Positions 29,787 to 44,130 are shown, counted from the first letter of the stretch. The stretch is DNA of 64,000 nt from Escherichia coli (GCF_011045215.1 NZ_CP049201.1); one strand, 5' to 3'. A program made the numbers and translations. The notes: generated by a model not told the origin, from the letters alone.

Positions 29787-30032
29787 ATGTTCAGGAAAAG
29801 ATGTTTATTATGTTACCCGGTACTGACCGTGTTATTCTGTATTACATCCTGTGTTCCGCCAGATGAAGCGATTTACAGCGGCAGGGAACAGATTATAACA
29901 GGAGGGGCAGGTACACCGATATATAAAGAGGACAGTAAAGGACATCAGAAGCGCGATATACGAATGGAACGAATCAGGGACCATGGGTGTGAAGATAACA
30001 GTACAGACTGTGGCAGACCATTTGGCTGGTAG
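29787..30032 (+). CDS. Small putative lipoprotein
   Basis: ORF 29745..30032; internal Met gives MFRKRCLLCYPVLTVLFCITSC with lipobox-like ITSC; weak RBS. Confidence 0.3.
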   Translation: MFRKRCLLCYPVLTVLFCITSCVPPDEAIYSGREQIITGGAGTPIYKEDSKGHQKRDIRMERIRDHGCEDNSTDCGRPFGW

Positions 30033-30206
30033 TTATTGTCAGGAAGCGTCTGGTGTTTATTATTTTTATGCACACGTCGTGGCAGGGGATTAACAGAAGA
30101 TGATTTCTGATATGTGTTATTCCTGATTTTTCTCAGGGTTGCGCCGGGTGCTCAGGATATATAGCCAGGAGAATTCTTCGGGAAGAGGAGAGCCTCTTAT
30201 TTGTTA

Positions 30207-31451
30207 ATGAGAAAAGCAGAAGTGAATGACTCTTTCATCACAAAAATCCTGACAGGTAATAACGTTCTGCGTGCTGCAATTGCCCGCATTGAGTGGGTTT
30301 TTGAAACATTTCCGTCGGTATGTCTGTCTTTTTCAGGTGGAAAGGATTCCACCGTACTGTTCCATCTTGTGGCAAATGTGGCCCGCAGGAAAAAACGTCG
30401 ATTCTCTGTACTGTTCATTGACTGGGAAGCCCAGTACCAGTGTACCGTTGAACATATTCAGAAGATGCGGAATATGTACGGGGATGTGACGGAGACCTTT
30501 TACTGGGTGGCACTTCCCCTGACCACGGTAAACGGTGTCTCACAGTTTCAGCCGGAGTGGATATGCTGGGAACCTGGTGTGACCTGGGTCCGTCAGCCAC
30601 CGGAAGAGGCCATTACGGATATGGCGTATTTTCCCTTCTACCGGTATGCCATGACCTTTGAAGAATTTGTTCCGGCATTTTCTTCCTGGTTTGCCGGTAA
30701 CCGGTGCGGTGTGGCGATACTGACTGGTGTCCGTGCGGATGAATCCCTCAACCGCTTTATGGGACTGGTGTCTCAGCGTAAGCTCAGATATGCCGATGAT
30801 AAACCCTGGACCACGGCATCACCTCAAGGGTTTTACTACACCATGTATCCATTGTATGACTGGAAAGCCCGTGATATCTGGATATATAACGCCAGAACCC
30901 GTGCCATCTACAATCCCCTGTATGACCTGATGTACCGTGCCGGTGTGCCGTTACGTAACATGCGTGTCTGTGAGCCTTTTGGCCCGGAACAACGTAAGGG
31001 GCTGTGGCTTTACCATGTTCTGGAGCCGGAAACCTGGGCCAGGATGTGTGAGCGGGTGTCAGGGGCTGCCAGTGGGGCGCGTTATGCCAATGAAAGCGGT
31101 GCCTATTTTGCCCTGCGTAAACGTATATCAAAACCGGCTCATCATACCTGGCGCAGCTATGCGATGTTCCTGCTGGATGTGATGCCGGAAAGAACGGCAG
31201 AACATTACCGTAACAAAATTGCTGTCTACCTGCGCTGGTATCAAACGCGGGGCTTCCCGGACGATATCCCGGATGAACAGGAAAATGACCTGGGCTGCCG
31301 GGATATTCCGTCCTGGCGACGTATCTGTAAGACACTCATAAAGAATGATTTCTGGTGCCGGACCCTCTCCTTCAGCCCGAACAAACCCCGGCACTATGAA
31401 CGTTACCTGCAGCGTATGAAAGAAAGGAGGAAGGAATGGGGGATTCTGTGA
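30207..31451 (+). CDS. ibrA: PAPS-reductase-like (PP-loop ATPase) protein, IbrA-like
   Basis: ORF 30201..31451; PP-loop motif SFSGGKDS near N-terminus; paired with a ParB-like gene downstream. Confidence 0.8.
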   Translation: MRKAEVNDSFITKILTGNNVLRAAIARIEWVFETFPSVCLSFSGGKDSTVLFHLVANVARRKKRRFSVLFIDWEAQYQCTVEHIQKMRNMYGDVTETFYWVALPLTTVNGVSQFQPEWICWEPGVTWVRQPPEEAITDMAYFPFYRYAMTFEEFVPAFSSWFAGNRCGVAILTGVRADESLNRFMGLVSQRKLRYADDKPWTTASPQGFYYTMYPLYDWKARDIWIYNARTRAIYNPLYDLMYRAGVPLRNMRVCEPFGPEQRKGLWLYHVLEPETWARMCERVSGAASGARYANESGAYFALRKRISKPAHHTWRSYAMFLLDVMPERTAEHYRNKIAVYLRWYQTRGFPDDIPDEQENDLGCRDIPSWRRICKTLIKNDFWCRTLSFSPNKPRHYERYLQRMKERRKEWGIL

Positions 31452-32074
31452 CAGCGGAGATACTGGGTAACATGATTCGTCAGTACTTCAGCCAGGAGCG
31501 AGCAGAAGAAGAGACCATACAGGCTCTGAATCATCTGCGCAGGGTGCTGCATGAGGTCAGTCCTTTTGCACAGGAGCCTGTGGACTGTGTGCTGTGGGTG
31601 AAAGCGGATGAGGTGGTGGCCAATGATTATAACCCCAATGTCATGGCACCGGGTGAGAAAAAACTGCTGAAACATTCACTGGAGCAGGATGGGTTCACGC
31701 AGCCTGTGGTTGTCTCGGAAGAGAAGGAGCATTATCTGGTCGTGGATGGTTTTCATCGTCAATTACTGGGCAGGGAAGCAGGTACGGGAAAACGTCTGAA
31801 GGGCTGGTTGCCAGTGACCTGTATTAATCCGGACAGAAGGGGGCAGGCCTCACGTATTGCTGCGACCATTCGACATAACCGGGCCAGGGGGAAACACCAG
31901 ATAACCTCAATGTCTGATATTGTCAGAGACCTGTCACGTCTGGGCTGGACGGATGAACGCATTGGTACAGAGCTGGGGATGGACCAGGATGAAGTGCTGA
32001 GACTGAAACAGATTAGCGGGCTGACGGAACTGTTTCAGGAAGAAAATTTCAGTCAATCCTGGACTGTTAATTAA
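31436..32074 (+). CDS. ibrB: ParB-like nuclease-domain protein, IbrB-like
   Basis: 212 aa; ParB/Srx-type motif ...HYLVVDGFHRQ... and ...IRHNRARG...; overlaps ibrA 3' end. Confidence 0.75.
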   Translation: MGDSVTAEILGNMIRQYFSQERAEEETIQALNHLRRVLHEVSPFAQEPVDCVLWVKADEVVANDYNPNVMAPGEKKLLKHSLEQDGFTQPVVVSEEKEHYLVVDGFHRQLLGREAGTGKRLKGWLPVTCINPDRRGQASRIAATIRHNRARGKHQITSMSDIVRDLSRLGWTDERIGTELGMDQDEVLRLKQISGLTELFQEENFSQSWTVN

Positions 32075-32244
32075 TCGTAATGTTCCGGGGACCTCATCTT
32101 TCACAGAAATATTCTGTTCATTAGCATTCCGGTATTCGTATAACTTCTTTCTGTGGAGAGTAAACAATGCCCAGGATGCGATGGACGCTTGATCAGAAAA
32201 AACATCACGTTGCCGCATGGCGCGCAAGCGGCCTTACCCGTGAA
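32074..32244 (+). repeat. ~170-bp direct repeat, copy 1 (IS-end-like sequence plus first 26 codons of an HTH transposase)
   Basis: Near-identical to 34339..34508 (one 1-nt indel); both contain ATGCCCAGGATGCGATGGACGCTTGATCAG... Confidence 0.8.
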
Positions 32245-32342
32245 CAGTACTGTGAACTTTACGACATTCCGTTTAAATCCCTGCGCCAGTGGCCGCAGGA
32301 TGTCGCAAAAGCCGAAAAACGGCTCTTCCGCAACCTGGGTTG
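32167..32342 (+). pseudogene. Truncated HTH transposase OrfA (IS66/IS3-like), 58 codons
   Basis: MPRMRWTLDQKKHHVAAWRASGLTREQYCELYDIPFKSLRQW...; too short for an intact orfA; not in ORF track (below size cut-off). Confidence 0.5.
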
Positions 32343-32439
32343 AGATTTTCATGCCAGTGGACTCATGACCCTCTGCCTGAGTAGTTCAAATCCGGCTCGA
32401 CTGCAAAATGGCATCTGAATCGATCGCAGTTTGGCATTC

Positions 32440-33929
32440 CATATCCTTACCCATAAATCCGAGTGATGTTATTCTGTTGATAAATTAACCATAATTTAGA
32501 GGAACTATGGAAAACTGGGTTATTAAGGAGCTGGAATCTCTGAATGTTGGTGATATCAGGCTCGAAAAGCGAATAAAGCACGTTCTCAGTGTGCTTAGCC
32601 GTTCACCAAAGGAAAGTATTCCCGTATCCTGCCGTACCTGGAGTGAGACAAAAGCTGCTTATCGTTGCTTTTCCAGTGATAAAATTTCAGCCGATAAAAT
32701 CATGGCTCCCCATAAGAAAAATATCATCGAAAGGACTAAACAGTTTAAACGGGCTCTGGTTTTACAGGATACGACTGAACTAAATTATTCTGGTCAAAAA
32801 AAGAAACAGGGCGTCGGTCCCAGACGACATGAAAATGAGCGAGATTTGTTTATTCACCCTCAATTGGTTATAAGTGATTCAGGTATTTGCTTAGGGGTTT
32901 ATGATGATTATCAATGGTTCAGAAAAGAACTCAAAACTCAGAAACAAAGTCGTAAAGAAATAACTAATGATTCACTTCACAGGAAACATATCAGTGAGAA
33001 AGAAACAGGACGGTGGATAGAAGGATATAAAAAAGCAACAGAACTGGCTAGGTCCTGTCCTGATACCCAGATAATTTCTGTTTCAGACCGTGAAGGTGAT
33101 ATTTACGACCTCTTTGAGAGTGCAGAAAATGAAAGTGGGATAAAGGCTGACTGGCTCGTAAGAATGAAGAGCATTAACCGGGCTATACTGAATTCATCAG
33201 GAAAAAGAGACTCATTACTCCTGAATGAAAAAATGATGCAGATTTTGCCACAGCAGATAATTGAGTTTACCCTTCCGGAAGGACGAGGACAACCTTCCCG
33301 CAAAGTCCAGCAGGAGCTACGCTTAGCAAGGTTGACGCTACATCCACCCACCGGTCGAAGAGGAAAGTTACGTTGTTCTCCGGTAACGGTAACTGTATTA
33401 CTTGCAAAGGAAATAAATGCTCCAGAAAGTGTCCAGCCATTAGTATGGTGGCTAATGAGTAGTGTACCTCCAGAAAAGCTGACGGAACCCGCACAGCTTA
33501 TTCAATGGTATTTATTACGCTGGCAGATTGAAGTTTTCTTTAAGGTATTAAAAAGCGGATGTCAGGTTGAGAAATTACAACTTGAGACATTTGAACGCAC
33601 AAGGAACTGTCTGGCCTTATACCTTATAATCTCATGGAGAATACTTTATCTTAGCTCATTGTATAAAATGGTTCCGGAGGAACCCTGTGATTTAATTTTC
33701 GAAAAGAAAGAATATGAGTATCTCTGGATATTGGTAGAGAATACGCCTCCACCTGAAAACATACCGAATATAAGAACGGCGGTTTTAATGCTTGCAAGAT
33801 TAGGAGGATATCTGGCAAGAAAAAATGATTCGCCTCCAGGCCCTAAGACTATATGGTCAGGATTAACACAATTAATGCTGTCAATTAATGCCATAGAAAT
33901 AGCCCAGAAAACTTGTGGGTAAGGGTATG
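32440..33929 (+). mobile_element. Intact IS4-family (IS50/Tn5-like) insertion sequence with 9-bp target duplication TTGGCATTC
   Basis: Imperfect terminal inverted repeats CATATCCTTACCCATAAAT (32440) vs CATACCCTTACCCACAAGT (rc of 33911-33929); identical 9-mers at 32431-32439 and 33930-33938. Confidence 0.8.
32507..33922 (+). CDS. IS4-family DDE transposase
   Basis: 471 aa; signature YLLRWQIEVFFKVLK (Y-x2-R-x3-E-x6-K) typical of IS4/IS50 transposases. Confidence 0.9.
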   Translation: MENWVIKELESLNVGDIRLEKRIKHVLSVLSRSPKESIPVSCRTWSETKAAYRCFSSDKISADKIMAPHKKNIIERTKQFKRALVLQDTTELNYSGQKKKQGVGPRRHENERDLFIHPQLVISDSGICLGVYDDYQWFRKELKTQKQSRKEITNDSLHRKHISEKETGRWIEGYKKATELARSCPDTQIISVSDREGDIYDLFESAENESGIKADWLVRMKSINRAILNSSGKRDSLLLNEKMMQILPQQIIEFTLPEGRGQPSRKVQQELRLARLTLHPPTGRRGKLRCSPVTVTVLLAKEINAPESVQPLVWWLMSSVPPEKLTEPAQLIQWYLLRWQIEVFFKVLKSGCQVEKLQLETFERTRNCLALYLIISWRILYLSSLYKMVPEEPCDLIFEKKEYEYLWILVENTPPPENIPNIRTAVLMLARLGGYLARKNDSPPGPKTIWSGLTQLMLSINAIEIAQKTCG

Positions 33930-34032
33930 TTGGCATTCGAATCGATCATGATTTGGCATCCATCTCCGATCACAGTTTGGCATCACAATCGATCACGATT
34001 TGGCACGCTTCCGATCATTGATTGGCATCCTG
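33930..34032 (+). repeat. Tandem array of ~23-bp GATC-containing repeats (consensus ...TTTGGCAT...CGATC); a further unit lies at 32405-32439 on the other side of the IS4 element
   Basis: Successive units ...tttggcatccatctccgatc / acagtttggcatcacaatcgatc / acgatttggcacgcttccgatc...; array is split by the IS4 insertion. Confidence 0.6.
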
Positions 34033-34345
34033 CCAGTCACTCCGGGAATTAACTCTTTTCGCCACAGTCTTCATTGCCGTGTTTAAACCAATGGAGACGG
34101 CAATGTCCAGAAAGAGAAAATCCAGGAGCACTATGGAAACCTGTTTTAAGATCCTTCAGCTCAAGTTCGACCAGAAGCTGACTAACCGTTGTATCGGGCT
34201 GACATTACACATCAGCGCCTCAACCGTTTTTGAGGTTCTTGCACGCTTCAAAGCCTCTTCTCTGTCATGGCCATTACCTGCTGATATATCCCATGACACG
34301 CTGGAGAAACTCATTTTTCCGCCCAAAGACACCTTTGCATCGTAA
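34022..34345 (+). pseudogene. N-terminal fragment of an HTH transposase (possibly IS21-family IstA-like)
   Basis: ...MSRKRKSRSTMETCFKILQLKFDQKLTNRCIGLTLHISASTVFEVL... HTH-like; truncated where the ~170-bp repeat copy 2 begins. Confidence 0.35.
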
Positions 34346-34508
34346 TGTTCCGGGGACCTCATCTTCACAGAAATATTCTGTTCATTAGCATTCCGGTATT
34401 CGTATAACTTCTTTCTGTGGAGAGTAAACAATGCCCAGGATGCGATGGACGCTTGATCAGAAAAAACATCACGTTGCCGCATGGCGCGCAAGCGGCCTTA
34501 CCCGTGAA
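34339..34508 (+). repeat. ~170-bp direct repeat, copy 2
   Basis: See copy 1 at 32074..32244; here the transposase reading frame diverges after codon 26 and is followed by an IS110-family element. Confidence 0.8.
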
Positions 34509-39280: not shown

Positions 39281-39919
39281 GTGGCATCATATCGTAACAA
39301 TGGTTTTTTTGGCCTGGTTGACGGCCTGAACTTTGCAGTACAGTACCAGGGTAAAAATGAACGTAATGATTTAGATCATTATACCAAAGGAAACGATGAT
39401 GGTTTCGGTTTCTCCACTACCTATGAATACGAGGGGGTCAGCGTTGGTGCAACTTATGCGAAATCTGATCGTACAGACATGCAGGTTCGGACAGGGAAAA
39501 CGCTCCCGGAGTTGACCGCTTCCGGTAAAAATGCAGAAGTCCGGGCGGCCGGTCTGAAATATGATGCCAATAACGTTTATCTGGCAACAACCTATTCTGA
39601 AACACAGAATATGACAGCTTTTGCTGGTGACTTTATTGCAAATAAAGCACAAAACTTTGAAGCAGTTACACAGTATCAGTTTGATTTCGGTCTGCGTCCG
39701 TCCATCGCTTATCTGCAGTCTAAAGGTAAGGATCCTGGTATGTGGGGTAACCAGGATTTGGTGAAATATGTTGATGTTGGTGCGACTTACTACTTCAATA
39801 AAAGCATATCCGCGTTTGTTGATTATAAAATCAACCTGCTTGACAAAAACAATTTCACGGATGTTCTGGGTATTAACACAGATGATATAATTGCCACTGG
39901 TCTGGTATATCAGTTCTGA
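39281..39919 (+). pseudogene. C-terminal ~210 codons of an OmpC/NmpC-type general porin (N-terminus missing)
   Basis: ...[22 protein letters not shown]...[29 protein letters not shown]...[13 protein letters not shown]...ATGLVYQF; in-frame stop at 39236-39238 and no N-terminal half upstream. Confidence 0.8.
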
Positions 39920-40552
39920 GTTAATTCTGAAAGATATACCGGAGAGGTTCCACCTCTCCGGTATATATGTGGTTCCCTCAAACCACTTTCCTGAGATACA
40001 ATTTTGTATCTGTCTGAAAATAACCTTCTGTTGTTTATCTTTATTCCAGGGGCGTTTTCGAATCCCATTTTGACAGATATTCGCGCGACTCAGAAACATC
40101 ACATATAAGGATGTCTCCGGAAAATAGTTCCCCCTCCGACATGATTTCACTTGTTTGTTACAATAGGGGGGATTGCGTTCCTGCCACATAAATTCCCACA
40201 ATCCGTGGTCAGGTTGTTTTCTCCAGTTTTACAGTACAGATAACCGAAGTTGTACCGGTATCAGGTAGCTCATATTCAGTAATATCGTCATTGTGTACAG
40301 ACAATCCTGCCACACACCAGGACTCCCGATAACTACTCACCCCATACAGAAAGGGAAGGATGTAAATTCGGTTCGCCCCTGTTTGTACTACATACTCCAA
40401 ATATTCAGATAATTGTCCGGGATTCAGGATAACTACCTCATTAAATTCTTCTTTCCACTCACGAATGGGTGCATCATGTTTTCAGTATACCTACCGTTGT
40501 CAGGATGCGGGAGAAACGATCCTTTATCCACCTTTTATATTCTTTACTGTGG

Positions 40553-41065
40553 TCACTCGTTACATAACTTCTGTCCGGACTCACCATGCCGCTGTTTACG
40601 CTTCTCATTCAGTATCATCAGCCGGGTTTCTGCCTCTTTCTGCTCCTGTGGTGTCACTTCGCCGCATGGCTGCCCTTTCAGGTCGTAACGGGCGCCACCG
40701 GCCATTAACGCACGGTAATAGCGTGGGGACTGTACATAAGACGCCACCGCCGCACGTAATGCACCTGTACCAAATACCTGTTTTCTGAGGGTGATATCCT
40801 GTATCAGGTCGTCAGCTATCCCCACTTTAATTGGCTTCGGATTTTCACGGTTGAATAACTCAGGCCAGAGCTCCACAAGACGATTAATACGCTTACGATT
40901 TTTGCGCTGGCGTTTTGTCATATGCCGCCACGGTGTTTTATTCGCAGGCTTCTGTCTGTCATTCACTTGTGGTGGTATCCGTCCTTTGTGTGCTGTGTTC
41001 GTTTTATCCTGCTGTGGCTTAGCAAAAATCCCCTGCGGTTTACGGTTAATGGTCAGCGTTACCAT
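40553..41065 (-). CDS. ProQ/FinO-domain RNA-binding protein
   Basis: ORF 40553..41257; preferred start Met 41065; C-terminal ...PIKVGIADDLIQDITLRKQ...ALRAAVASYVQSPRYYRALMAGGARYDLKGQPCGEV... aligns with ProQ N-terminal (FinO) domain. Confidence 0.75.
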   Translation of the reverse strand: MVTLTINRKPQGIFAKPQQDKTNTAHKGRIPPQVNDRQKPANKTPWRHMTKRQRKNRKRINRLVELWPELFNRENPKPIKVGIADDLIQDITLRKQVFGTGALRAAVASYVQSPRYYRALMAGGARYDLKGQPCGEVTPQEQKEAETRLMILNEKRKQRHGESGQKLCNE

Positions 41066-41903
41066 CAATACTTTTACCTTATGCTGTCGTAAAAAATGGA
41101 ATCTCATCCGGGACATTTTCCGGTGGATATAAGACAGCCCGGTGTCTGTATTGTTCCTGTCACTTACGATGAGTGCATTTGTAATCAATAAATATCGGGG
41201 GTGACGGTCATCCCGGAACAAATGACTGAAAACGGCGTCAAAGTTACAGGAAAACACCGTTTATCGACACCGGACAAAAGAGCGTTGTCGGTATCCGGCT
41301 CAAAAGCAGGAATAACAATCAGCGTCATGGCGTGGTGAATGCCGGTGCCAGGTAGTCAGCAGGTAATTATTGATGGCAAGACCAAAAGGTGCGTTAAACA
41401 AACGAACCCTGTCAGTGGTGAATATGGTACAGCCCGGTGAGGTAAAATATTTTTCACTTGAACAATTTTTAAAGAACCGGAAACGAACCAAAATGGGGCG
41501 TCGTTCCCGGAAGAACTCATCTCAGACAGAGGGCCAGGAACAAAAACAGTGTGACGGAGTAAAGGACCGGGAGCTTACCGGTAATTCAGCACCGGCAGAA
41601 CAATCTTTATGCCACGTATACTCCGGATGTTCACTTATCAGCGGTCATGGCTGAATACATAGTTGTGCTGGTGATATTGATGATGTTCTGTCATGGGGAT
41701 GGCTGGTGTGTTTTGATAATCCGTAACTTGTATGCCCGCACAGAGCTGTTTCATCTGGTGGATATGACAGTGATGAAATCATGTTGTACCGCTGTTAAAA
41801 ACAGTCGTTCAGTCCTTTATGTTACCCGTTTTGGTAACAATCAGTTGGTCATGGACGTGTGAACCATCTGTGCTTCCATTGAATTTTATGGACTGATAAA
41901 GTT

Positions 41904-42563
41904 TTGTCAGATGAATTTTTATACGGAATTCTTTTCAGTATGCATACACGAATTGATTATCTGGTGAATAAATACAGTTTTACAGAACTGAATGAATCTC
42001 CACGTCTTCGTCGGCAGTGGCAGGATGTTCTGGAGGAGTGCCGGCAGACAGAGGCCGGGCCAGAAGAACGGCTGCGTATTGCACTGCTGAATGTGGATTA
42101 CGTCACCAGTTTTGAGCTGCCTTTTCGCTTGCTGCTTACCCGGACACCACAACTGATTGCCGCGCTGCGTGAAGAATGGGGCATCAGCCAGAAAAATGTG
42201 GTGTTCAACGATAAACGGTTTGGCTGCGTGTACAGCCTGAAGGCCAGCCTTTCGGGTGTGCCGGATACATTCCGGTATCATCTGTCTCACCGTATTCGTC
42301 GCGTGGTTGGGAATGAAAACACATCATTGCCATATCAGCAGGTTGCCCGGGAAGTGAAAGCGTCCCGTGAACGGCTGAAGTATGCGCTGGAAGCAGGTTT
42401 ACTGGTGACCGCACTGGACGGGCTGTTCTGGTCTGGCAGTCAGCGTATTGCGGCTGATGTCCTGAGATTAAGACAGAGCGGAATGCCGGTAGTGACAACG
42501 AATGTGGAGGTGCACGATAACCTGACGGGAACAACCCGCAAAGTGCCGGCATACCATCTCTGA
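41904..42563 (+). CDS. Hypothetical protein (cryptic-prophage-type; family not confirmed)
   Basis: 219-aa ORF with plausible coding composition; no motif recognised. Confidence 0.35.
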   Translation: MSDEFLYGILFSMHTRIDYLVNKYSFTELNESPRLRRQWQDVLEECRQTEAGPEERLRIALLNVDYVTSFELPFRLLLTRTPQLIAALREEWGISQKNVVFNDKRFGCVYSLKASLSGVPDTFRYHLSHRIRRVVGNENTSLPYQQVAREVKASRERLKYALEAGLLVTALDGLFWSGSQRIAADVLRLRQSGMPVVTTNVEVHDNLTGTTRKVPAYHL

Positions 42564-42935
42564 TACGACCATCAGGGGGGGCTCTGGCAGCAGTATGACA
42601 TTCTTTATACTTTTACCCGTGCCTGAAAACATGTGCTAAGGAAACGGGAATGGCAAGGTCCGATTACGATATTATCAATCTGTCTCTGGAACATGAACTG
42701 AATGAGTGGCTGGCAGAGAGAGGTTATGCCGGACTGGCGGATAACCGGAACCGCCTGGCAGAGGTGGTGACCCGCAAATTGCAGGACAGCTTTTATATAA
42801 ACGTTTCCTGGGATGCGCTGAACACAGCATACAGTGAACACCCTGAGTGGTTTTCAGGGCTTGTCTCCGGGGATGAGAATTAATAAGTGGATTATGCTGC
42901 CATCAGGCAGTGTGATTGCCGGCAGGGATTTCGTT

Positions 42936-43127
42936 TTATTCTGTTTCTTCCCGGGGTTCGGGTTTGAATTTTCCCAGGAAGTTGTACATCGGTCGCATGC
43001 AGGGATGCGGATAGCCGTCCCGCATAAACACCACCCGGGTTTCCTCAACACTGGTCACGGTGACAAGCGCACCATGATCGTCTCTGTATCGCTGATTGAT
43101 TTTCGGTAATGGAATATCTTCTGACAT
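42936..43127 (-). CDS. Small hypothetical protein
   Basis: 63-aa ORF immediately upstream of the T6SS promoter region; no family recognised. Confidence 0.25.
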   Translation of the reverse strand: MSEDIPLPKINQRYRDDHGALVTVTSVEETRVVFMRDGYPHPCMRPMYNFLGKFKPEPREETE

Positions 43128-43560: not shown

Positions 43561-43632
43561 TTAAATCAGTGCACAAGGGGAGGCATCTGCGGTGATGGAC
43601 CCCCTGAGATGCAGGCTTCACAGGAGAGAGTC

Positions 43633-44130
43633 ATGAGCAGTTCGTTTCAGAATGAAATCCCGAAAGCAAGGGTAAATCTGAAATTAGACCTACATACAGG
43701 TGGTGGGCAGAAGAAAGTGGAGCTTCCGCTCAAACTGCTGGTTGCCGGTGATTTCAGTAACGGACAGGAAGAGCGTCCACTGTCAGAGCGTGTAAAAACG
43801 GATATTAATAAAAACAATTTTAATGATGTTCTGGCAGATATCTCCCCGTCTGTGCGTCTGAATGTGGAGAACACGCTTGCCGGTGATGGCTCTGAAGAGA
43901 GCATCAGCCTGACGTTCCGCAATATGAACGATTTCACGCCAGAGCAGGTCGCCCGACAGATTCCCCGTCTTAAAGCCATGCTGGCCATGCGCAGCCTTCT
44001 GCGGGACCTGAAAGCCAATCTGCTGGATAACGTGACTTTCCGTAAAGAGCTGGAAAAAATTCTGCGTGACCCGGCACTGAGCCAGACGCTGCGTGATGAA
44101 TTGCGTGCACTGGTGCCGGAAAAGGCGTGA
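43633..44130 (+). CDS. tssB: T6SS sheath small subunit TssB (VipA)
   Basis: ORF 43609..44130; start at Met 43633 after AGGAGA; size and ...KARVNLKLDL...LPLKLLVAGDFS... typical of TssB. Confidence 0.9.
   Translation: MSSSFQNEIPKARVNLKLDLHTGGGQKKVELPLKLLVAGDFSNGQEERPLSERVKTDINKNNFNDVLADISPSVRLNVENTLAGDGSEESISLTFRNMNDFTPEQVARQIPRLKAMLAMRSLLRDLKANLLDNVTFRKELEKILRDPALSQTLRDELRALVPEKA

Follow-up and report, generated by a model that had tools for sequence, protein, structure and literature searches.

The window analysed here, a stretch of 64 kb (64,000 nucleotides) of Escherichia coli DNA, carries on its minus strand an ORF that occupies exactly positions 40553-41065, from an ATG at 41065 to a TGA at 40553-40555, and encodes a protein of 170 aa with an overall pI of 10.5. 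The original prediction had placed a gene at these very coordinates, and the alignment of homologues confirms the start: 23 full-length homologues begin at M-x-x-LTINRKP, which corresponds to the ATG at 41065, and a longer form starting with GTG at 41257 (234 aa) was rejected on this ground. The features of the gene and of its surroundings are the following.

39281-39919, plus strand: porin gene fragment, the C-terminal two thirds (Pfam Porin_1 positions 126-337 of 337); a pseudogene in E. coli C5
40553-41065, minus strand: CDS of a ProQ/FinO family protein (island/satellite subfamily), 170 aa, from the ORF, Pfam, the RefSeq name and dN/dS
40553-40604, minus strand: lineage-specific 3' end, the last ~17 codons and the stop; matches from other islands begin at 40605
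40586-40900, minus strand: FinO domain, residues 56-160, from the Pfam envelope, the AF2 model, Foldseek and residue mapping
40877-40936, minus strand: conserved basic motif TPWRHMTKRQRKNRKRINRL, residues 44-63, near-invariant columns in alignment A1
40901-41065, minus strand: N-terminal extension, residues 1-55, from alignment A1, pLDDT and composition
41066-41083, minus strand: putative ribosome-binding region; AAGG precedes the ATG by 11 nt, as read from the sequence
41373-41654, plus strand: divergent small basic ORF (MARPKGALNKRT...), its first ~45 codons conserved in two other islands (E66 and F374; alignment A2)
41904-42563, plus strand: protein of the ECs1377 family, DNA-binding by annotation; NCBIfam NF052300 at 318 bits (cut-off 190)
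42936-43127, minus strand: DUF4222 protein, Pfam PF13973, E=5e-23
43609-44130, plus strand: tssB, first T6SS gene, from the RefSeq annotation of the collinear C5 locus

When the window allele is compared with three other island alleles, the domain shows a dN/dS of 0.13-0.15 (dS 0.43-0.47), which marks the ORF as a genuine coding gene rather than a product of chance and shows that the family evolved under purifying selection; such a low ratio speaks of past rather than present selection and cannot decide whether the window copy functions. In the putative ribosome-binding region, other alleles have GAGG where the window copy has AAGG. The counterpart in E. coli C5, 99% identical, is named "ProQ/FINO family protein" in RefSeq (WP_073521199), and the protein is an uncharacterised member of a known family, already recognised in public annotation.

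The basic N-terminal extension described in the original prediction is present, with 14 K/R against 2 D/E in residues 1-55 and a pI of 12.0. It is composed of the conserved start MxxLTINRKP, a variable Q/P/K-rich linker and the first part of the basic motif TPWRHMTKRQRKNRKRINRL, which runs into the first helix of the domain and holds 9 K/R in residues 44-62. Residues 1-41, Q/P-rich and variable among homologues, are predicted to be disordered (pLDDT <50). Within the motif lies an internal Met49, the start of the 114-aa ORF of "split" alleles. This very common form of the gene (E. coli M505, L004:8973-9487; also L006) consists of a 57-aa ORF and a 114-aa FinO-domain ORF with an ATGA overlap; the split corresponds to window positions ~40920-40940, and the 114-aa ORF begins at the conserved Met (window M49). 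The split site reads G-AAA-AAA-C, and a -1 slip there would restore the full-length frame (...LLKK followed by TPWRHMT...). The split allele is probably a fixed frameshift with a coupled restart, or it may reflect programmed frameshifting.

Upstream of the gene, tssB starts at 43609, 2.5 kb away and divergent, with three ORFs between. The order reads ProQ/FinO (-), small basic ORF (+), ECs1377 (+), a 77-aa ORF (+), DUF4222 (-) and tssB, followed by the rest of the T6SS cluster (tssC, tssK, tssL, an OmpA-family gene, hcp, tssH, vgrG and so on). The small basic ORF at 41373-41654 has no match in Pfam or NCBIfam and a weak match in PHROG, and its start is conserved in E66 and F374 despite the differing cargo beyond it.

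The FinO domain and its relatives

The Pfam profile PF04352 (ProQ/FinO) matches residues 56-160 over profile positions 4-107 of 109, with 84.3 bits and E=7.4e-24 (gathering cut-off 27 bits). The FinO-like domain that had been read at the C-terminal end is thereby borne out, but the claim that it aligns closely with ProQ was overstated, as the identity to the ProQ N-terminal domain (NTD) is ~32%. Plain sequence search recovers five out of five solved FinO-domain proteins (ProQ NTD, FinO, Lpp1663, RocC and NMB1681) with similar scores. In the AF2 model, built on 25 homologues, the domain reaches a pLDDT of about 84-95, with helices at residues 51-66, 83-93, 100-111, 114-122 and 139-166 and strands at 125-127 and 133-136; the long C-terminal helix (139-166) has a basic patch at its end. 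Foldseek searches with this model gave a probability of 1.00 to RocC, NMB1681, FinO and Lpp1663, while unrelated folds were all at noise. The best superposition was obtained with RocC (7rgt; TM 0.85 normalised to RocC, rmsd 2.0 A, 97 columns). The predicted structure has the helical core, the beta-hairpin and the concave surface that belong to the FinO-domain fold.

According to the crystal structure of the RocC-RocR complex, a pocket of Tyr, Arg and Gly grips the 3'-terminal nucleotide of the terminator, and a conserved Arg of the N-cap helix lies on the hairpin phosphates (PMC9674577). Mutagenesis of ProQ found R58, Y70 and R80 essential for all RNAs tested, with G37 in the pocket (PMC10578477). 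The pocket was defined here, following these two studies, by the Tyr (Y70/Y87), the Arg (R80/R97) and the Gly of the beta-turn (G37/G52). ProQ G37, R58, Y70 and R80 map to G82, R104, Y116 and R126 of the window protein, and these four residues are near-invariant across 25 subfamily members (alignment A1). From residue conservation and fold, an intact 3'-end-binding pocket is predicted. In the N-cap motif, where a Ser/Thr cap and flanking Lys would be expected beside the conserved Arg (ProQ R58/RocC R75), the window protein keeps the Arg as R104 but has G99 at the cap and T100 and A102 in place of Lys. ProQ K54 and RocC K71/K73 are not conserved (T100 and A102 here), and ProQ R62 and T65 are replaced by A108 and V111. 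Since the N-cap lysines and R62/T65 are replaced, the hairpin-contacting surface is less basic than that of the models, and the mode or affinity of binding may differ from that of RocC and ProQ.

The protein scores 56.4 bits against the ProQ equivalog NF003434 (cut-off 127) and 57 bits against the NCBIfam model of FinO, NF010317 (cut-off 136), and is neither ProQ proper nor FinO proper: it is a member of the ProQ/FinO family and an orthologue of neither. The NTD of E. coli ProQ (5nb9) is the best sequence match among solved structures (E=7.4e-11), with G37, R58, Y70 and R80 conserved. Unlike ProQ, however, the window protein has no linker or C-terminal Tudor-like domain and has an N-terminal extension, its FinO domain is C-terminal where that of ProQ is N-terminal, and it is encoded by an accessory gene (20% of genomes), whereas ProQ is encoded at a core locus. 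FinO of F-like plasmids (1dvo; sequence E=5.6e-10, structure rmsd 2.2 A) is likewise the product of a mobile-element gene, of similar size, and its domain too lies between a basic extension at the N-terminus and a long helix at the C-terminus. By analogy, the same activity would be expected, namely the binding of a terminator hairpin with its 3' tail. The identity to FinO is only ~28%, though, and the window gene is chromosomal and lies outside any finP/traJ or tra context, with no tra genes in the 64-kb window. The closest structure is that of RocC of Legionella pneumophila (7rgt/7rgu), whose Tyr87, Arg97, Gly52 and N-cap Arg75 have equivalents here; RocC differs in being encoded by the core genome, in its long C-terminal extension and in N-cap Ser70 and Lys71, which are Gly99 and Thr100 in the window protein.

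Two further groups of proteins resemble the window protein by description or by annotation. FopA (IncI1 pCol1B9) and PcnR (IncI2) are plasmid FinO-domain repressors of replication, through which an element controls itself by means of RNA (PMC9977716, PMC8053102, PMC7491321). They are similarly element-borne FinO-domain proteins encoded beside replication and regulation genes, a likeness that is based on descriptions; in contrast to them, the window locus has no recognised antisense RNA or leader stem-loop. An 8-kb tRNA-Pro element of enteroaggregative strain 042, noted in 2010, carries a proQ-like gene next to a PerC-like gene (Ec042-2429, ROD34; PMC2808357), and STEC pheV islands list a "ProQ/FINO family protein" (PMC6174562). 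Both are annotation-level entries in those papers, and are likened to the window gene by annotation and, for the former, gene order. In a review of FinO/ProQ proteins, homologues from chromosomes and mobile DNA that spread horizontally form one heterogeneous branch (PMC9977716), and the window subfamily fits this branch. Searches of the literature found annotation-level mentions of the island subfamily and no functional studies of it; the gene goes unmentioned in an analysis of pheV islands from 2024. PADLOC found no defence-system match for the protein and its neighbours. As far as sequence and fold can tell, the mode of action would be like that of FinO, FopA, PcnR or RocC.

Distribution, island backbone and cargo

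Homologues were found by blastn in 1095 of 5426 complete E. coli genomes (~20%), in 784 of them at a coverage of at least 80%. All 1562 E. coli matches are chromosomal and none is on a plasmid, with up to 9 copies per genome, and protein searches extend the homologues to Shigella, Salmonella and Citrobacter. Collections of plasmids and phages hold only distant FinO-family relatives, at most 41% identical over half of the protein; plasmid matches to the ProQ/FinO family, including one on a Salmonella plasmid of ~86 kb, are ~28-40% identical. A lone close "plasmid" match was set aside, the record being 4.8 Mb long. The subfamily is limited to integrative elements in the chromosomes of Escherichia and its relatives.

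The window itself is a mosaic that includes IS66, IS110 and Tn5-type transposases, a block with fimbrial, glycosyltransferase and IbrAB genes, a YfdX gene, the porin fragment and then the T6SS. Such an IS-rich mosaic island, together with the patchy and multicopy occurrence of the gene, agrees with the horizontal acquisition proposed originally. The stretch with the ProQ/FinO gene is 99% identical to the chromosome of the bovine strain E. coli C5, and a block at window positions 15500-34500, bounded by IS66 copies, is 99% identical to plasmid A of the same strain. This block contains a fimbrial operon and genes for a polysaccharide deacetylase, a GT4 glycosyltransferase, VirK, DUF4056, an HTH protein and IbrA/IbrB. 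As it adjoins sequence that is chromosomal in C5 (the ProQ/FinO gene and the T6SS), the block must have moved between plasmid and chromosome.

In other islands, the ProQ/FinO gene converges tail-to-tail with a gene for UCP030791, annotated as YagK/YfjJ-domain or phage-derived, with 18 nt between the two stop codons. A query with this pair was covered to at least 80% in 794 genomes, about as many as carry the ProQ/FinO gene; this and the other linkage counts are coverage thresholds of separate BLAST searches and not a gene-by-gene census. UCP030791 ends a backbone row of Gp2-like/YagK-YfjJ, YfjI (DUF3987), Gp2-like, a 186-191-aa ORF and an AlpA-type regulator. The island of E. coli M505 adjoins yghD and has the usual arm of YeeP, antirestriction, RadC and CbtA/CbeA. 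On the far side of the ProQ/FinO gene the cargo varies, with dndBCDE/dptH in M505, H-NS, dGTPase and MazG in F374, IS1/sul2/tet(B) in MS1050 and the T6SS in the window. Linkage to UCP030791 on one side and variable cargo on the other indicate that the gene is part of the backbone and sits where backbone and cargo meet. The first ~375 nt of UCP030791 also occur at 68-71% identity in EC20 (L022) and MIN12 (L023), outside obvious islands, next to agaR in the former, acuR in the latter and a DeoR-family regulator in both; these copies look like old remnants.

Members of the subfamily that are 59-66% identical to the window protein, including the commonest one, P0098, found on >1000 contigs, lie in a second context, small integrative elements of E. 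coli, Citrobacter (Citrobacter braakii) and Salmonella (Salmonella salamae) (L009, L010-L018), with no T6SS nearby. There, a co-directional row runs through AlpA, AntA/Bro-N, small ORFs, DUF4222, a primase/helicase (DUF927, or D5_N+DUF5906+Pox_D5, or AAA_25), SSB, the ProQ/FinO gene and PerC or a small ORF, and the cargo is again variable (GmrSD, HEPN and reverse transcriptase among others). The ProQ-PerC pairing of the 042 tRNA-Pro element agrees with this context. Its layout resembles that of a satellite or mobilisable element with a slot for defence-type cargo. What the two contexts have in common is that the gene keeps company with the AlpA-type control and the replication-type genes of an integrative element.

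In regard to the T6SS, the original prediction was right in that the gene lies near to it, tssB being 2.5 kb away. The functional tie drawn from this position does not hold up, since the span from the ProQ/FinO gene to tssB is present in only 83 genomes at a coverage of at least 80%, against the ~794 with UCP030791. On this proposal, the protein would act post-transcriptionally as a dedicated regulator of the T6SS beside it, or of island cargo in general, binding T6SS mRNAs or a T6SS-linked small RNA. This would agree with the divergent position next to tssB and with the order ProQ - ECs1377 - DUF4222 - tssB being kept in ETEC E66 at ~82% nucleotide identity. A different T6SS junction (ProQ - DUF1187 - VipA/VipB) was seen on one metagenome contig, which leaves a slight chance for a link to cargo. 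Such a role is nevertheless very unlikely: the first arrangement occurs in only 83 of roughly 800-1100 carrier genomes and the second in 0 complete E. coli genomes, the T6SS of E66 is decayed while its ProQ/FinO gene is intact, and distant members of the subfamily have no T6SS nearby. Moreover, other cargos hold the same position, and the block ECs1377-DUF4222-tssB occurs without the ProQ/FinO gene in O104:H4 2011C-3493. ECs1377-DUF4222 was also found in O157:H7 and many other genomes with neither tssB nor the ProQ/FinO gene under the match. The trio of ECs1377, a small ORF and DUF4222 (window 41904-43127) is a module present in thousands of genomes, and on plasmids at ~67% identity; it occurs with or without the T6SS and with or without the ProQ/FinO gene. 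The T6SS looks like one of several cargos that abut the gene by chance, and its position looks incidental. The main correction to the original prediction is that it is the island backbone, rather than the T6SS, to which the gene shows conserved linkage; the idea of a T6SS riboregulator is attractive but unsupported.

The window copy and a role for the subfamily

The window gene is of the backbone lineage, with about 80% aa identity, but is detached from the CP4-57-like/P4-integrase tRNA island module: tblastn with the backbone proteins (AlpA/YfjI/Gp2-like/UCP030791 module) gave no match in the 64-kb window. On the 3' side, where other islands carry UCP030791, the window has the porin fragment. 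Similarity to other islands breaks off at ~40605, which, as judged from the alignments, is a recombination or insertion breakpoint. With its backbone partner missing and its 3' end replaced, the window copy is an orphan; its reading frame is still intact, though decay would be plausible in this lineage. The stretch from DUF4222 to the ProQ/FinO gene was also considered as a decayed primase-SSB module, which was rejected, as tblastn with primase, SSB, PerC, AntA, Bro-N and AlpA was negative; the window DUF4222 and that of the second context are too divergent for BLAST alignment.

Two further structures lie between the porin fragment and the ProQ/FinO gene. Just past the stop of the porin fragment, at 39934-39966, two perfectly matching 15-bp arms enclose a 3-nt loop. 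This inverted repeat, which is probably the terminator of the porin gene, lies on the other strand from the ProQ/FinO gene, ~590 nt downstream of its stop. At 40209-40480, on the minus strand, there is a frame that stays open but has no proper start (...REWKEEFNEVVILNPGQLSEYLEYVVQTGANRIYILPF...KLEKTT*), apparently the C-terminal remainder of a gene that has been lost. Its product may resemble SMI1/KNR4-type immunity proteins, but a 63-aa part of it was negative in Pfam.

It could be argued that the window copy is a functionless remnant, an ORF that merely looks intact after the loss of its partner genes and of its native 3' end. The missing backbone and the homology breakpoint inside the last 17 codons would fit such a state, as would the differences in the last few residues even between the window and the 99% identical C5, the absence of an intrinsic terminator in a scan downstream of the gene, and the frameshifted or split alleles that are common elsewhere. 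Among these alleles, P0002, 90% identical, has lost Y116 and R126 through internal frameshifts. On the other hand, the ORF is intact, with all key residues, the conserved start and the ribosome-binding region, and the variable C-terminal tail is not part of the domain core and differs among members of the family in any case (alignment A1); the low dN/dS, reflecting past selection, does not decide. On balance, we consider a functionless remnant rather unlikely.

A partner RNA was sought around the gene. Rfam gave no match in the whole window at gathering thresholds and, at E<=1 on 39-44 kb, a single chance match of 16 bits. Scans for promoters and terminators near the gene, both in the window and in native contexts, stayed at or near the background of shuffled sequences and indicated no partner RNA; one locus (L019) has 22 terminator-like sites against a shuffle mean of 9.1, none of which indicates a partner RNA either. 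An antisense hairpin with a T-run inside the gene (40922-40936, plus strand) was rejected, being weak (3 GC and 2 GU pairs) and without an upstream promoter, and is treated as a by-product of the coding sequence. A GC-rich candidate ligand hairpin, GCCGGGAGACAUCCGGC followed by GUUUU, lies 29 nt into the UCP030791 ORF. As DNA it reads GCCGGGAGACATCCGGC and then GTTTT (L004:8435-8451, plus strand; L019:2815-2831, minus strand; alignment A3). The hairpin is conserved in nine loci with changes only in the loop or to wobble pairs, and lies in coding sequence; across the nine loci there are no compensatory changes or covariation, and the window lacks the hairpin. It may serve within the gene as a terminator or attenuator and as a ligand of the FinO type.

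Taken together, we favour, with a probability of about 0.55, the reading that the gene encodes a FinO-type RNA binder of a mobile element that serves the backbone of its own element, and that the copy in the window is orphaned and merely abuts the T6SS cargo. Characterised mobile-element FinO proteins regulate their own element via one or a few RNAs (PMC9977716). By the example of the family, the pocket would take up the last nucleotide at the 3' end of an intrinsic terminator together with the hairpin next to it, while the basic extension may add non-specific RNA contacts or an annealing activity. The protein would then stabilise or protect an RNA, or promote its pairing with a target, as FinO, FopA, PcnR and RocC do. 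Judging from the genomic context, its normal clients would be RNAs of the element's own backbone, and whatever activity the window orphan may still have would be directed at RNAs from other parts of the genome. Post-transcriptional regulation of island transcripts, as suggested in the original prediction, is a reasonable expectation at the level of the family, with backbone RNAs, which are absent from the window, as the likelier targets.

Alternatively, the protein, as a horizontally acquired paralogue, could be a broad, ProQ-like chaperone of host RNAs that competes with or supplements chromosomal ProQ at many terminator hairpins. Its predicted pocket for the 3' ends of generic terminators is intact, FinO and FopA reportedly also recognise some RNAs from the chromosome that mimic their own ligands (PMC9977716), and only targets in trans remain in the window, where the local backbone is lost. 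However, the protein has no ProQ linker or Tudor-like domain and reaches 56 bits where the ProQ equivalog demands 127, the characterised mobile-element members are narrow in specificity (PMC9977716, PMC9674577), and a linkage this tight to a single backbone gene speaks for a local function. A chaperone of this breadth therefore appears quite unlikely.

Returning to the reading of an RNA binder that serves its own element, the replication-gene partners of the subfamily (primase/helicase-SSB-ProQ-PerC or Gp2/YfjI/UCP030791) allow a more specific, tentative proposal. The subfamily might be the integrative-element counterpart of FinO, FopA and PcnR, a dedicated RNA chaperone of AlpA-controlled islands and satellite-like elements that is encoded with replication genes and sets the choice between quiescence and replication or excision through one RNA of the element; with up to nine paralogous copies in a cell, islands could then cross-regulate each other, and orphans like the window copy could act in trans on sister islands. 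We regard this as a possibility that is well short of even odds.

FinO-domain proteins studied so far are either global chaperones of the core genome (ProQ, Neisseria ProQ and RocC) or plasmid regulators (FinO, FopA and PcnR). The window gene stands for a third group, so far unstudied, that is located on chromosomal islands in about one fifth of E. coli genomes, often in several copies, where it marks the junction between a conserved backbone and variable cargo that includes virulence, T6SS, defence and resistance genes. If RNA-based control of island replication, excision or backbone expression is indeed its role, it would bear on the stability and the spread of these islands.
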